DNA of 64,000 nt from Escherichia virus TH41. The stretch lies in the sequence record MT446412.1, one strand, 5' to 3'. Under the pieces are notes generated by a model, which searched no databases, was not told where the DNA came from, and saw only the letters and a program-made list of their open reading frames with translations. The position numbers were made by a program, and so were the translations under genes. Positions 53,274 through 59,011 of this stretch are shown here, piece after piece (position 1 is the first letter of the stretch; each line of letters opens with the position of its first letter).

Positions 53274-53549
53274 ATGACTAAATTTGAAATCGTTTCTGAA
53301 ATTGTTACTATAACTTCAATTTTGATTAAAACCGACCGGGAAGATATTACGATGAAGCGCGATGTGTTTATCGCGTTTTTGAATGAGTTGGGATTGAGAA
53401 ATGAGAATGGGAATGAGTTAAACAATGTATCGTTTAACAAGTTGTTTAAAAGTTTATCTGAAGATGAAATTGAACAAATTATTGAACAATTTAACGAAGG
53501 ATTCGAAGATATACACCGTTATCTTATGATGTATACCTCCGGATTCTAA
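53274..53549 (+). CDS. asiA: Anti-sigma70 factor AsiA
   Basis: 91 aa; blocks ILIK..REDI, FIAFLNE.G, NEGFE..+RYL.MYT match remembered T4 AsiA; convergent with holin t. Confidence 0.8.
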   Translation: MTKFEIVSEIVTITSILIKTDREDITMKRDVFIAFLNELGLRNENGNELNNVSFNKLFKSLSEDEIEQIIEQFNEGFEDIHRYLMMYTSGF

Positions 53550-54199
53550 CGTGTACGCCCAAGCGTACGACCTGCTTGTCCACACATAGAAGAAAGCCTA
53601 TCAAAACCAAGGTCGGGTTTTTGCTTATACCAGTACAGTGAGACTGTGCCTGCATAAACGTTTTCCAAATTAAAGAATGGGCAGCTGAACATATATGTGA
53701 AGCTGCTTTTTTTCTTTGTTGGTAAGAATACAGATTCCACACTGGATTCAAAATAATTACCATTAACCCCCGCCAAATATTCCGCTGAAGTCTTATCTAT
53801 TGGAAACCCACCTAAATTTTTTTCGTCGACTGTATCAGGCAATATCCCCTCGTAACCCACCATATCCACAAAGTAGTTAAGGTTAGTTGGCCTAAAAGAA
53901 TATATTGCTGTAAAGTCTGCCCCACTTGACGAGTGGACTATCTGGATTTGCTCGATAGCTGCAATTTTAAATCTGTTATCCTGGTCTTGCCTTATCATTT
54001 CAGTGTATGAGGCATATGAAGCATCCCTGTACGCATCTAAAAGTGCATCACCTTTATACCAGATTACCGCCATTAAAAATAATAGAACAATAACTAGTAC
54101 CCGGGAAAAAACAACTTTCCCGGTCGCATTATCTTTAAAAATTCTATCAAGAAGTCCAAAAAGTAGGTCGGGTATTGATATTCCTACTTTTGGTTCCAT
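53546..54199 (-). CDS. t: Holin T
   Basis: 217 aa; single N-terminal TM then large domain; last gene of late block next to asiA as in T4. Confidence 0.75.
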   Translation of the reverse strand: MEPKVGISIPDLLFGLLDRIFKDNATGKVVFSRVLVIVLLFLMAVIWYKGDALLDAYRDASYASYTEMIRQDQDNRFKIAAIEQIQIVHSSSGADFTAIYSFRPTNLNYFVDMVGYEGILPDTVDEKNLGGFPIDKTSAEYLAGVNGNYFESSVESVFLPTKKKSSFTYMFSCPFFNLENVYAGTVSLYWYKQKPDLGFDRLSSMCGQAGRTLGRTR

Positions 54200-54217
54200 A
54201 CTTTTCTCCTTTAAAGA

Positions 54218-54225
54218 TATTTATA
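54218..54225 (-). promoter_or_regulatory. Late promoter TATAAATA upstream of holin t
   Basis: Exact TATAAATA on minus strand about 18 nt upstream of SD AAAGGAG and the ATG. Confidence 0.6.
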
Positions 54226-54236
54226 GCGCTTATGTA

Positions 54237-55016
54237 CTATAACCATGAGCCGTAAATTGTGCCTGTAGCACCCCATGATGGGGAGGAACCGAATACTGCT
54301 CTACCAGGAGCACCACCACCCGACCTGGATAAGTTATTACCCCATCCATTGCCACCAGCGCCTCCAGCATCACCGCCATTGCCACCGCCAAATTGGCTTG
54401 CATTACCACCGCCACCTGGACCATCATAACTAGCATTGCCGCCTGGCCAATTAACACCACCGCCGCCGAGACCAAATGGTCTGCCGCCACCGCCACCTGC
54501 TGTAGCATTTGCAGGCCAACTATTCTGTAATGATGCGGCACCGCCGCCACCACCACCGGAGGCTATCACACCATAATTCCAAATGCGAAGTCGTCCACCA
54601 ATATCATTTTGGATTACGTCACCACCATTAGTGCCCGGGCTTCCATTTACTGTACCGTTGCCACCTCGGCCCCACATATGAACACCACCATGAATATTCA
54701 AAGTAACATATTCGTTAGGGGTATCACCGTACATAAAGAACAACGGAACATCTTTAGTATATGATACTAAGTTGCCTGTGATATTAAACACTATAGGAGC
54801 ACCGCCGGCTTCAAAGCAACGGTCTCTAAACCATTGCCCGTTAAAGTTGTGGTCCGCACCAAGTGTGTGAATAATCTCACGGGACCGACCAGCAAATTGC
54901 GACATTGATACCGGTAGTCCCAATCTTAACTGTCCAGCCGCTGCAGACATCCATCGCTGGCCTGTTTCAGCCACTGCTGATGTTCCAATCCAACCAGGAA
55001 TTCCTACTACTGCCAT
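54237..55016 (-). CDS. 38: Tail fibre adhesin gp38 (T2-type, glycine-rich motifs)
   Basis: 259 aa; N-terminus [24 protein letters not shown], poly-Gly blocks; follows gene 37. Confidence 0.85.
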
Positions 55017-55027
55017 AAAAACCTCCA

Positions 55028-55041
55028 GGGCCCGAAGGCCC
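55028..55041 (-). promoter_or_regulatory. UUCG-tetraloop hairpin (GGGCC-UUCG-GGCCC) between genes 37 and 38
   Basis: Read on minus strand; followed by SD GGAGG and gene 38 ATG, no U-tract. Confidence 0.55.
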
Positions 55042-55045
55042 TTTC

Positions 55046-58000
55046 TTATAATAATGATTTAATTAATGCTTTCAACTCAGCAATTTCAGATTTCAATTCC
55101 TTGATTTCGTCAGTATGCTCGTTGATAGTAGCAGTATTTAAACCGATAATACCGTTATAGTTTAAACGAAGTAAGCCGGTCTCTTTATCTTCAGTCACAA
55201 GTTCAGGCAATACTTCTTGAACTTCCTGAGCAATTAAACCAGCAGACGGTTTAACTTCATCTGTGACAGAGTTTTTAAGCAGATAAGTATAACCGCCTAA
55301 GAGTTTAGATTTCTCTTGGGCATTTTCTATAAGCTTAATTTCTGACTTACAGCGAATATCAGAACGGATATAAACGTCGTTAACATCGATGTTGTCACGA
55401 ACATACATACCGGCGTTAACGTTTAGAAACTTATTTTGCTCGGTCGTAATACCGCCAGCTTCCCAGAAAAATACACTCTGCGCATTAGCATACGCGCCTA
55501 GACTACCATCACCTCTAGTAGCAAGACCTGTATCGTTATCGCCAATAGCAATAGAAGCATTTGGTAATGAACATGATGTACCAATGCCCATTCGAGACGC
55601 AGCATTCAAAGCATTAGGGGCGGTTAAGGTGCCGTCGGCGCCAAAAACGTATATCGCATTAGGATGGCTTGCATCGCCGCTTTCAGCAGAACCCACACGA
55701 ATAACAGCAGAACCCCAGGTAGCCGCTCCACCTAATCGAATAATACCGAAGTCTGCTTTAGTAGAATATCCTTCAGTAGCTAGAGTGCTTTTTCCTTTGA
55801 TAATTGGCATATAACTATCTTTAGGAACGGATTCACCAAAGTCAACGAAATAAGGAGCTTCTGTTTGCCATTGGTTTCCGTAACCATGACCTTGAGTATT
55901 AACCCATGCTCGACCGTTAACATACATGCGATAATAATTCATTTGCATTGCCAGACCAGCACCAGAAAGGTCTACGTTGAATTCACCGTTATTGGTGATA
56001 TACAGGCCACAGTTAGTAGCATAGCTGTAAAGGCCTATTCCATTATCGCTGCCACCTTTACCGACATACCAGTTGCCGGTACCATTTACATCAGAACGGA
56101 TATGTGAACTATTACCTGTAGTTGTTCTTAATACTAAAGCATCACCAGGGGCTTCTATTGTCAGCTTGCCTGTCATTGTATCGCCTTCTTTAGCAACACG
56201 AGTAGCAATGGCATCGCGAATATTAGTTACATCGCCTGCTGAAGTAAACGTTTTCCAAATATCGGACCAGATATTACCATTTCGGGCAATAGTAGCTTCA
56301 CCACCACCAACCTGCACGTTATCGGGGAAGTTAACTGTACCATCGGCATTAAATCTTGAGGTATGACCTTCGGTCCCGTCTTCTTTAAGATGGTGTAAAA
56401 CAAAAGTCCCGGAATTAATTTCAGTACCTAAAGACCAAACAGCTTTTCCTTGTAAGAATTTCTGCTTAACAATAGGATAATATTTACTTACTGCGGCATC
56501 ATCAATTTCTTGGAAAATAGGAGCTGCTTGTGCATATTGAATATCGTAACCGCCTGCACCAGCCCCATGACCAACAAATTTAATATAGCCGTTTGCTGCG
56601 AACGTATTGTAACTTGATTGTAAATCTGGAATAGTAACTTTACCAGTATCTAAAGCCATACTAAATGGGCGAAGTGGACCGATATCACCGCCCTGTCCTT
56701 CACCAAACGCTGTAGGAATAATATGAAGACTTCCTTCTGAGCGACGGAAAATAGCACCGTAATCGTCGTTCCAAATTCTAAGGGCATTAACAGCATTACC
56801 TGCAATTTCACCATGTGCGCTGATTGTACCATCAAATGTAGCATTTTTTACTACGGTCAGGTTTTCATTAACAATCTGGGAGCCATTTAGAACCGATTCG
56901 ACTTTACCAGCAGTTGTTCGTTGAATATATTGCATCCAGCTAGTAGCATCAGATATTTCCATTACGTTTTTGCGAGTACCGTCTACAGTGGTAAAAGTAT
57001 CGCCCCAAACGCGTATATTCATATTATCGACAGAGCTTTGACCAGACGTATAGCTACTAAACAGTAAGGTTGAAGCATTACTGCGGCCGTCGATATTAAT
57101 TAAACCGCCAATCACATCGATATTACCCGGAGTAACCAACAAACCACCCGTGGTGTTAATGTTTGTAGTGCCTTTACCACGAAAATAGTGGTGATATGCT
57201 CCACCTTGATAATATCCTAAAAGAGTTTGTCCATCACCGAAGGCATTATTATCATGATAAGTAACAACGGTACCAAGCGCATAGTTTTCTGTCGGCGGCG
57301 TAGTTAAATCGTTACCGTTTACAGAATAACCCATGACCATTTTTCTAAGGCTTACAGTTGATTCAGGGCTGTAAAGGAAAGTTCTCGTACCATTGTTTAC
57401 TGCATAGAAATAACCATCTTGGTACCATTTTAACCCGGTGTCATTATCACCAAGAGCAATAGAACCCTTACCTAAGGCTGAATATGTCATAGGCCCTGAT
57501 TCCATACCCACTGCAATCGAATGTCCAGCTTGAAAACCACCTGAATAAGCAAAAGATAACATATAATCAGTAGGGGTTGAACCAGAATACCAACTGATAC
57601 CGTTATTTTCACAAATTTCATGGAGCATTGCGGCGGCTGCATCAGTACGCACAACACGTAAATTATTTTTATCTGTGTTAGAATTATTATTTGCTAATGA
57701 ATAGATATCATAATCACCAGCTTTCTTACCATTTGTAATAACTTTATCAGTCAGAATTTGTGGGGATGAAATAGATTTCCATGCTGATACTTCAGGTGAA
57801 GTAAATTGACCATTGCCTGAAAACGCGTAAGTGCTTTCGCTACCAGCGGCATAATCTTGCACTCGTATATTAACTACCTGAGTTGTCAAACCCGCATTGT
57901 TAGGAGAAAAGATAATACCGCGTTCGCGTGATGCACCATCAAAAAAACGAAGATGCGAAGTCGATGCACTCTTAGAAATAAGTTCACCACCTTCAGTCAT

Positions 58001-58312
58001 TATCTGACCCGCGGCAATAATATCGCGAGCTACACGAGCAATGCCGGTTAAATTAAAATCACCAGTTTGGGTAAAAGTACCATTCAGGGTATAATCACCA
58101 GTTTGATTGTAATTACCGTTATGAATAACATTACCATCAATATTACCGCCTTTGGCAAAACCAAGGTCGATAATGGCGCCGGTGTCATCTTTAGTAAAAA
58201 GTAAGCGGTCTTTCAGGTTGATAGCCAGTTCACCTTCAGCAAGAACTGTTGGCGCCGGACGAACGCCGGCAACCTTACTTCTTTTAAATTGTATTTGTTT
58301 TAAAGTAGCCAT
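55046..58312 (-). CDS. 37: Long tail fibre distal subunit gp37
   Basis: 1088 aa; N-terminus [36 protein letters not shown] matches remembered T4 gp37; C-terminus differs. Confidence 0.93.
55049..55363 (-). other. C-terminal intramolecular chaperone / autoproteolysis domain (peptidase S74-like) of gp37
   Basis: Motifs [11 protein letters not shown] and [15 protein letters not shown] in last 105 residues. Confidence 0.6.
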
Positions 58313-58320
58313 AATGCCTC

Positions 58321-58968
58321 TTAATAATATCCAAAATCTTGTACGGAGTCTTTAAGAACGATTTGGTCAAAACGAGGCACATGGGCCGGGTCTGATGCTG
58401 GGTTCCTAGAGAAGAAATTAGGTGCTGACAAGTTACCTGTCATTGTTTGCAATGTACTATTATTTAGTTCTACCTGTTGCTGGTTAGTTACATTACCAAG
58501 ACCAACTTGAGCTTTTGACGGAGTATTCCCTGGAGAAAATACACGACCTGTTTCATCATAAATTTGTCGAGCTAACGTATCACCCATAACAGTAAGACGT
58601 TTTGCTCCTGTCGTAGTATCAGGGTCAAAAATAACAAATGGTGTTCCCGTTTCAGTCTCAAATCCGAATGGTCCTTTAATACGGAAAGATGCTGTAAATG
58701 GTGTTCCGCCTGTTCTTGCTCCTAACTTAATCCCGTAACCATTTGAATCGTTAAATGTCAGACCCTGTTCGAAATACACATTTGCTTTATAATTACCACC
58801 CAGAGCTTTAGAAACAAAATCGTTATCGACTGCTTGTGGCTTGTTATATTCGGAATAAATTTTATAAGTTTTGAAATATAAGTCATTACTGACTGGTGTT
58901 AATGGGAAATTACCCTGGTGCCAGAGGACCGAACCTCCGGCTGTTGAGCCTAGTTTTAAATCTGCCAT
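58321..58968 (-). CDS. 36: Long tail fibre distal connector gp36
   Basis: 215 aa; N-terminus MADLKLGSTAGGSVLWHQGNFPL and C-terminus PRFDQIVLKDSVQDFGYY match remembered T4 gp36. Confidence 0.92.
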   Translation of the reverse strand: MADLKLGSTAGGSVLWHQGNFPLTPVSNDLYFKTYKIYSEYNKPQAVDNDFVSKALGGNYKANVYFEQGLTFNDSNGYGIKLGARTGGTPFTASFRIKGPFGFETETGTPFVIFDPDTTTGAKRLTVMGDTLARQIYDETGRVFSPGNTPSKAQVGLGNVTNQQQVELNNSTLQTMTGNLSAPNFFSRNPASDPAHVPRFDQIVLKDSVQDFGYY

Positions 58969-59003: not shown

Positions 59004-59011
59004 TATTTATA
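59004..59011 (-). promoter_or_regulatory. Late promoter TATAAATA upstream of gene 36
   Basis: Exact TATAAATA on minus strand about 35 nt upstream of gene 36 ATG. Confidence 0.6.

Follow-up and report, generated by a model that had tools for sequence, protein, structure and literature searches.

A probable receptor-recognition cassette at the long tail fiber tip of Escherichia virus TH41

In phage T4, gp38 serves as a non-structural chaperone, and the adhesin is the C-terminal domain of gp37 itself (PMC3157838, PMC6851490); in T2 and T6, gp37 undergoes proteolytic processing and gp38 caps it (PMC3157838, with reference to Drexler et al. 1986). In S16, autocleavage at DLNVS^SDRRIKK removes the last 113 residues of gp37 (PMC7917993), and gp38, which has 10 glycine-rich motifs and 5 distal loops, docks via three tryptophans that sit at the tips of its three N-terminal helices (PMC6851490). 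The gp37 site of the fPS phages reads DVYIR^SDGRLK (PMC7917993). Here we analyze the corresponding genes, g37 and g38, of Escherichia virus TH41 (MT446412.1) in a window of 64,000 nucleotides (nt), to the whole of which all coordinates refer.

We propose, with a probability of roughly 85%, that this region is the receptor-recognition cassette of the long tail fiber of a T-even phage (Straboviridae, Gaprivervirus), comprising a gp38 adhesin with OmpF-type loops and a gp37 cleaved by its S74 domain, and that the cassette is mobile. Of this, the analysis itself shows the sequence with its assigned domains and folds, where the variability lies, how the alleles are related and where the mosaic boundaries fall. 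As a module it is of the textbook T2/T6/S16 type; deposited genomes contain near-identical versions, and structural and genetic work has already documented how it operates. Among public sequences, Escherichia phage ECML-359 (OL631482, Gaprivervirus) comes closest, with 99.8% nt identity over 53500-58400. What we add is a receptor prediction (OmpF), exact cleavage and cassette boundaries, and the observation of a tryptophan-to-serine replacement (W37S) in gp38.

The gene order is 36-37-38-t, all on the minus strand, with g38 directly downstream of g37 and upstream of t. The interval 54237-55363 consists of g38, a 29-nt spacer and the final 105 codons of g37. The two genes of the cassette are as follows.

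55046..58312 (-), g37, distal long-tail-fiber subunit, 1088 amino acids (aa) (open reading frame (ORF); phrog_1699, Pfam)
54237..55016 (-), g38, tail-fiber tip adhesin, 259 aa, 25.8 kDa (ORF, Pfam, PHROG, PDB, fold)

The gp38 adhesin and the C-terminal end of gp37

When gp38 was compared with protein families, the Pfam family GP38 (PF05268) matched aa 47-259 over its entire profile (1-218 of 218; E 8.8e-82, 274.6 bits, cut-off 25) and Gp38_N (PF21721) matched aa 1-42, also over its entire profile (1-40 of 40; E 1.4e-17, 63.8 bits, cut-off 25). gp38 also matched phrog_2056, 'tail fiber protein; host specificity' (E 1.4e-106), and the sequence matched two solved structures in the PDB, the receptor-binding domain of PP01 gp38 (9V85, 4e-73) and S16 gp38 (6F45_D, 2e-48). 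An AlphaFold2 model, built on 91 homologues, reached a predicted local distance difference test score (pLDDT) of 87.5 and a predicted template-modeling (TM) score of 0.81. Searching the PDB with this model by Foldseek recovered 9v85_C (TM 0.91, root-mean-square deviation (rmsd) 1.5 Å) and 6f45_D (TM 0.80-0.84), and no other fold below E = 1. The model and the Foldseek matches support a three-domain fold, with a helical attachment domain, a beta-helix and a polyglycine II (PGII) sandwich.

54879..55016 (-), N-terminal attachment domain of gp38, aa 1-46, three short helices (11-17, 20-29, 38-41) (Pfam Gp38_N, model)
54672..54878 (-), conserved beta-helix core of gp38, aa 47-115 (identity, low column entropy, model strands)
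54303..54671 (-), specificity domain of gp38, aa 116-238, about ten glycine-rich motifs with variable loops in between, forming the polyglycine sandwich (glycine runs, entropy, structure match)

The core is 88-100% identical to that of all compared E. coli-phage gp38 proteins save T2's own (36%). The sequence-only reading of this DNA had described a 259-aa protein with a conserved N-terminal attachment region and polyglycine blocks, and this description agrees with the ORF, with the Gp38_N match and low entropy across the attachment domain, and with a composition of 68 glycines (26%), 49 of which form stretches of two to six within residues 116-238.

The reading frame of g38 opens with ATG, 5 nt downstream of a GGAGG Shine-Dalgarno sequence. 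The GC content is 55% locally at g38 versus 40% across the window; the glycine richness of gp38 accounts for this rise and for spurious proline-rich ORFs on the opposite strand. Two plus-strand ORFs that overlap g38 (54259-54429 and 54275-54433) were thus rejected as genes, being a proline-rich mirror of the glycine codons. Together with a further frame on the minus strand (54230-54556), these ORFs encode Pro-, His- or Val/Ala-rich products and are artefacts of GGN-rich coding. We found no tandem DNA repeats beneath the glycine blocks of gp38.

At full length, gp37 matched phrog_1699, 'long tail fiber protein distal subunit' (E 0), and it contains the Pfam domains Gp34_trimer and Peptidase_S74. 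The latter covers aa 984-1040 of 1088 (E 3.9e-12, 46.7 bits, cut-off 22, profile 1-58 of 58). The E-values of this domain and of the two gp38 families rule out a chance match.

55049..55363 (-), intramolecular chaperone of gp37 (Peptidase_S74), aa 984-1088, 105 aa (Pfam PF13884; alignment to S16 6f45_A)
55361..55366 (-), predicted autocleavage site between R983 and S984 of gp37, DVYIR^SDIRCK (alignment to the S16 and fPS sites)

The motif SDIRCK starts at aa 984 of gp37 (codon 55363-55361). The last 173 residues of the protein align to the S16 gp37 fragment that was co-crystallized with gp38 (6f45_A, 2e-34), and S16 gp37 was the sole PDB match of the C-terminal 299 aa; the T4-type receptor-binding needle was not matched. 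A profile of six homologous C-termini retrieved 6f45_A (3e-29), MYRF (7dc3, 1.5e-10), a tail fiber (8jov, 1.9e-7) and the GA-1 neck-appendage chaperone (3gud, 4e-3), whose chain starts at the serine equivalent to S984. In the six gp37 C-termini, T2 and RB51 included, the S, D, R and K of the motif S-D-x-R-x-K are invariant. Thus, the claim that gp37 ends in an S74-like intramolecular chaperone starting at SDIRCK was borne out by the domain match, by the invariant S-x4-K and by alignment to the mapped S16 site. S984 and K989 are the predicted catalytic pair, which we take to be a dyad of the kind described for endosialidases (Ser911/Lys916), although nothing on the latter turned up in the literature searched. 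By homology, cleavage is predicted between R983 and S984, so that the precursor of 116.5 kDa would be split into a mature protein of aa 1-983 (104.8 kDa) and the released chaperone (11.6 kDa).

Compared with the described systems, the S16 tip complex (6F45) shares with TH41 an S74 domain on gp37, predicted to be cleavable in TH41 too, and a gp38, monomeric in S16 and presumably in TH41, with three-helix attachment domain, beta-helix and polyglycine sandwich (in TH41 from sequence and model). It differs in that its gp38 is only approximately 46% identical over the structural alignment, that Ser and not Arg (as in TH41) precedes the scissile bond, that the loops are different, and that the third tryptophan is present. 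S16 is reported to use OmpC. The nearest solved structure is PP01 gp38 (9V85; 63% identity, TM 0.91, rmsd 1.5 Å), which binds OmpC, whereas OmpF is predicted here; its loops are also of another sequence (for the PP01-like allele of wV7, loop identity is 35%). T2 resembles TH41 in gene order, in the glycine motifs and in a gp37 C-terminus with the cleavage motif (SDIRLK in T2), but identity between the two gp38 proteins is only 36% for the core and 56% for the specificity domain, and T2 depends on FadL (PMC8594841). In T4, the genes for gp37 and gp38 likewise lie between g36 and t; unlike in T4, however, the gp37 end in TH41 does not match the needle and gp38 carries a complete glycine-rich domain. 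The alignment of gp38 with T2 and other relatives, proposed as a check in the sequence-only reading, thus showed that the glycine motifs are common to these proteins. The label 'T2-type' holds in the broad sense of an adhesin-type gp38; in the narrow sense it does not, as the specificity domain is 56% identical to that of T2 itself and 90-92% identical to the OmpF allele of RB51, Bas47 and FL33.

The possibility exists that gp38 is only an assembly chaperone, as in T4, and absent from the virion, so that gp37 would bind the receptor itself. Several homologues in GenBank are labelled 'assembly catalyst' or 'chaperone', and the N-terminal 60 residues of gp38 also match the shorter PHROG family phrog_1121. 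Over its full length, however, gp38 matches the adhesin family and two adhesins of solved structure, the end of gp37 corresponds to the cleavable S16 tip and to no T4-type needle, and gp38 swaps redirect receptor use in close relatives (bioRxiv 10.64898/2026.04.02.716166). The family, PHROG, PDB-sequence and fold matches together identify gp38 as the adhesin type and not the T4 chaperone type, in line with what the sequence-only reading had claimed, and we regard the chaperone-only alternative as extremely improbable. It is equally hard to believe that the S74 domain persists as a relic without cleavage activity and that gp37 of the virion retains its C-terminus. In the relatives compared, neither the Ser/Lys pair nor the motif around it varies, and both are intact in TH41. 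Two viable phages, the Dhakavirus NC-G and the Mosigvirus AlbertHofmann, carry a domain with 100% and 96% identity, respectively, and S16 gp38 docks on a surface that is exposed by cleavage (PMC6851490, PMC7917993).

Variable loops and the predicted receptor

The distribution of variability in gp38 was examined in an alignment of the TH41 protein with 90 cluster representatives from a search of a 5.8-billion-protein collection (91 sequences). Column entropy was low in the attachment domain and the beta-helix core and approximately zero in the glycine blocks, of which G116-G121 (GRGGNG), G131/132, G154-159, G174-178 (followed by RPFG), G182 and G185 are invariant. It peaked at aa 122-130, 160-173, 186-211 and 222-234, where insertions and deletions also fall.

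54627..54653 (-), variable segment 1, aa 122-130, TVNGSPGTN (smoothed entropy 1.3-1.9 bits; insertions in 25 of 91 sequences)
54498..54539 (-), variable segment 2, aa 160-173 (top entropy, up to 2.6 bits; pLDDT down to 66)
54384..54461 (-), variable segment 3, aa 186-211, two loops, including Q208 (codon 54393-54395) (entropy 1.4-2.6 bits)
54315..54353 (-), variable segment 4, aa 222-234, holding the sole amino acid difference from ECML-359 (N223 versus A) (entropy 1.7-2.4 bits)

This pattern agrees with the published scheme of glycine-rich motifs and hypervariable segments, of which there are four (Trojet et al.). The segments between the glycine blocks had been pointed out as the likely host-range determinants, and it is there that the variability is concentrated among the 91 homologues.

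Residues 116-259 of gp38 were then compared with proteins of known receptor class. They are 90-92% identical to those of RB51, AlbertHofmann/Bas47, FL33 and fPS-2 (80-85% in the loops alone) and 47-56% identical to those of T2, T6, M1, FL08 and wV7 (20-43% in the loops alone). OmpF dependence has been demonstrated experimentally for AlbertHofmann/Bas47 (PMC8594841), FL33 (PMC12032242), fPS-2 (PMC7917993) and RB51 (bioRxiv 10.64898/2026.04.02.716166). The other classes compared were FadL (T2), Tsx (T6), OmpA (M1 and FL08) and OmpC (the PP01-like wV7), with receptors taken from PMC8594841, PMC12032242, PMC7917993 and the 2026 preprint. The four OmpF-dependent phages share with TH41 all the glycine motifs, a glutamine equivalent to Q206 of RB51 and the C-terminal ...IYGSW(L/I); they are unlike TH41 in 11-14 loop substitutions and in that all four keep the third tryptophan. 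The replacement Q206L in RB51 gp38 converts OmpF use to OmpW use (bioRxiv 10.64898/2026.04.02.716166). In TH41 the glutamine is kept, since Q208 (...NASQFGGG) aligns with RB51 Q206 (...YTSQFGGG). Because the loops share an allele with four OmpF-dependent phages and Q208 is kept, OmpF is predicted from the loop allele to be the primary reversible receptor, and we consider this prediction a good deal more probable than not. It is relevant to forecasts of host range and of resistance by ompF loss or ompR mutation.

Several findings weigh against the proposal or parts of it. The production of fibers of the T2/S16 type is reported to need the general chaperone gp57A as well, so that the locus covers the assembly pathway only in part; the term 'self-chaperoning', which had been applied to the gp37 C-terminus, is correct in that an S74 intramolecular chaperone is present but was overstated in this respect. 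In the attachment domain W9 and W22 are present, while the third anchoring tryptophan is replaced by Ser37 (TCA at 54906-54908), so that docking may differ in detail from that in S16. A literature search for the receptors of the nearest gp38 relatives (ECML-359, NC-G, UGJNEcP3/4 and VR5) found none published. The loops differ from those of the validated OmpF binders at approximately 11-14 positions, three of them beside Q208 (GGGGNASQF versus GGAGYTSQF), and one loop substitution is enough to switch porin (bioRxiv 10.64898/2026.04.02.716166).

With the same architecture, the loops could therefore recognize a receptor other than OmpF, for example OmpW, or only a strain-specific variant of OmpF, or the lipopolysaccharide (LPS) core in addition. 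The number of loop substitutions and the effect of Q206L by itself in RB51 both speak for this. In addition, fPS-2 and fPS-90, which belong to the same allele class, also need the LPS core (PMC7917993), and a minor TolC effect occurs in FL33-type phages (PMC12032242). On the other hand, Q208 is kept, the loops are 80-85% identical to those of four independent OmpF-dependent phages from three studies and at most 43% identical to those of any other receptor class, and close gp38 relatives use the same receptor in published phylogenies. We consider a non-OmpF receptor unlikely.

With OmpF as the predicted receptor, the fiber tip most likely works as follows, with cleavage, capping, stoichiometry and receptor specificity extended to TH41 by homology. 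gp37 would trimerize into a beta-helical fiber, the folding of whose distal end is nucleated by the C-terminal 105-residue chaperone. Trimer folding would be followed by cleavage of the R983-S984 bond by S984, with K989 as its activator, and by release of the chaperone, exposing a flat trimeric gp37 tip that ends in ...DVYIR. One gp38 monomer would then cap this tip through its N-terminal three-helix attachment domain; the presence of gp38 at the virion fiber tip is likewise predicted from its homologues. The C-terminal polyglycine sandwich would present the variable loops to the cell surface, with OmpF as the most likely reversible primary receptor.

Mosaicism of the locus and the Ser37 patch

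Identity profiles in 30-nt and 150-nt windows, together with the protein alignment, placed a sharp boundary in g37, just upstream of the predicted cleavage site.

55400..55430 (-), recombination junction, 13-22 codons before the cleavage site (30-nt and 150-nt identity profiles, protein alignment)

In the distal g37 shaft, nt identity to NC-G and AlbertHofmann is 0.37-0.67; downstream of 55400-55430 it rises to at least 0.9 and remains within 0.9-1.0 as far as the end of g38, chaperone domain included. Records of Gaprivervirus, Dhakavirus, Mosigvirus and Tequatrovirus carry the same allele. The jump in identity and the presence of the allele in at least four genera indicate that the chaperone domain and gp38 are a shared cassette, which would move jointly by recombination between Tevenvirinae genera. 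An equally tight junction was described for the fPS phages by Salem et al. (PMC7917993). The locus is thus a clean case of two published observations, namely the chaperone domain and gp38 as one cassette and a crossover just upstream of the cleavage site. gp38 itself is modular, as RB51 is 54% identical in the attachment domain versus 91% in the specificity domain.

Upstream of the cassette, identity above 80% to the distal shaft of gp37 (aa 690-965; 55418-56245) was found only in ECML-359, ABTNLsp5, VR5 (two records) and EAWsc9, followed by UP19 (78%) and PSD2001 (73%). Eight records from seven phages exceed 70%, and the other 460 of the 468 matched records lie below 60%. Judged by these records, the distal shaft is an uncommon allele.

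ECML-359 is 99.8% identical to TH41 at the g37-g38-t locus, with gp37 aa 690-965 100% identical and gp38 differing in one residue (N223 versus A) and sharing W37S, but its divergence from TH41 is concentrated outside 51.5-60.8 kb. Over 43820-64000, divergence from OL631482 is approximately 3% per kb at 43.8-51.5 kb, approximately 0.2% at 51.5-60.8 kb and approximately 4.7% in g34 (60.8-64 kb). The low-divergence block takes in arn/asiA, t, g38, g37, g36 and g35. The idea that the window is the ECML-359 genome was rejected, as identity over 20 kb is 98.1% and the divergence is uneven; rather, two Gaprivervirus genomes that are distinct elsewhere appear to have come to share the distal tail-fiber block recently. 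The ECML-359 record (OL631482.1) has 170 features and leaves g34, g35, g37 and g38 unannotated despite intact ORFs. The present analysis supplies the missing g37 and g38 calls for this lineage; the member that is closest among those sequenced is used in an E. coli phage cocktail (PMC6219645).

The g36-t region (5.4 kb) differs from that of ECML-359 at nine places, six of which lie in the last 115 nt of g38 (54255-54350). These six comprise the two-base change behind N223 versus A and four synonymous third-position changes within 16 nt (54255, 54258, 54267 and 54270). These differences look like a small gene-conversion patch.

Ser37 lies inside a second patch, of 60 nt (54891-54950 (-), gp38 codons 23-42), in which identity to NC-G is 63% versus 97-100% elsewhere in g38. 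The sequence of this patch resembles the Tequatrovirus type more than the Dhakavirus type. We rejected a one-base error as the source of W37S, since the codon is TCA versus TGG, adjacent codons differ too, and ECML-359 has the same serine. Column 37 holds W in 73, Y in 11, S in 5 and N in 2 of the 91 sequences, showing that the third tryptophan is not strictly family-defining. ECML-359 is a working lytic phage of the cocktail mentioned above (PMC6219645), and since it also has Ser37, the replacement is evidently tolerated. There was no co-variation between W37S and the gp37 distal allele. VR5 and ABTNLsp5, which are approximately 90% identical in the gp37 distal region, keep Trp37, and gp37 thus shows no visible compensating change. 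It is conceivable, but we think improbable, that W37S in its small recombinant patch and the dozen or so loop changes near the glutamine that determines OmpF or OmpW use mark a functionally distinct sub-allele, with a two-tryptophan docking on gp37 or with specificity not for K-12 OmpF but for another porin or porin variant. W37S is in any case a small curiosity for studies of gp37-gp38 docking.

Neighboring genes and expression signals

The cassette is flanked by the following genes and accompanied by three candidate expression signals.

58321-58968 (-), g36 (ORF list)
53546..54199 (-), holin gene t, 217 aa, downstream neighbor of g38 (Pfam Phage_holin_T, E 1.8e-66)
55022..55041 (-), g37-g38 intergenic region, GGGCC-UUCG-GGCCC hairpin at 55028-55041 followed by a GGAGG ribosome-binding site at 55022-55026 (sequence, fold)
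54218..54225 (-), T4-type late promoter consensus TATAAATA between g38 and t (motif; predicted late promoter of fPS-2 at the same place)
59004..59011 (-), late promoter consensus TATAAATA upstream of g36 (motif; predicted late promoter of fPS-2 at the same position)

The window contains no tRNA genes and no Rfam matches at the gathering threshold. The intergenic UUCG hairpin, which is conserved in NC-G, has a folding energy of -14.4 kcal/mol; as 9 of 200 shuffled sequences equalled or beat this value (z -1.7), we do not claim it as a functional element.

The consensus TATAAATA occurs 6 times in the window versus 4.8 expected, so that the count alone is no evidence for promoters. Among these sites, only those before t and g36 match annotated relatives, and their agreement with the fPS-2 positions suggests late co-transcription of g36, g37 and g38. 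By analogy with fPS-2, the site at 59004-59011 is the likely start of this late transcript.

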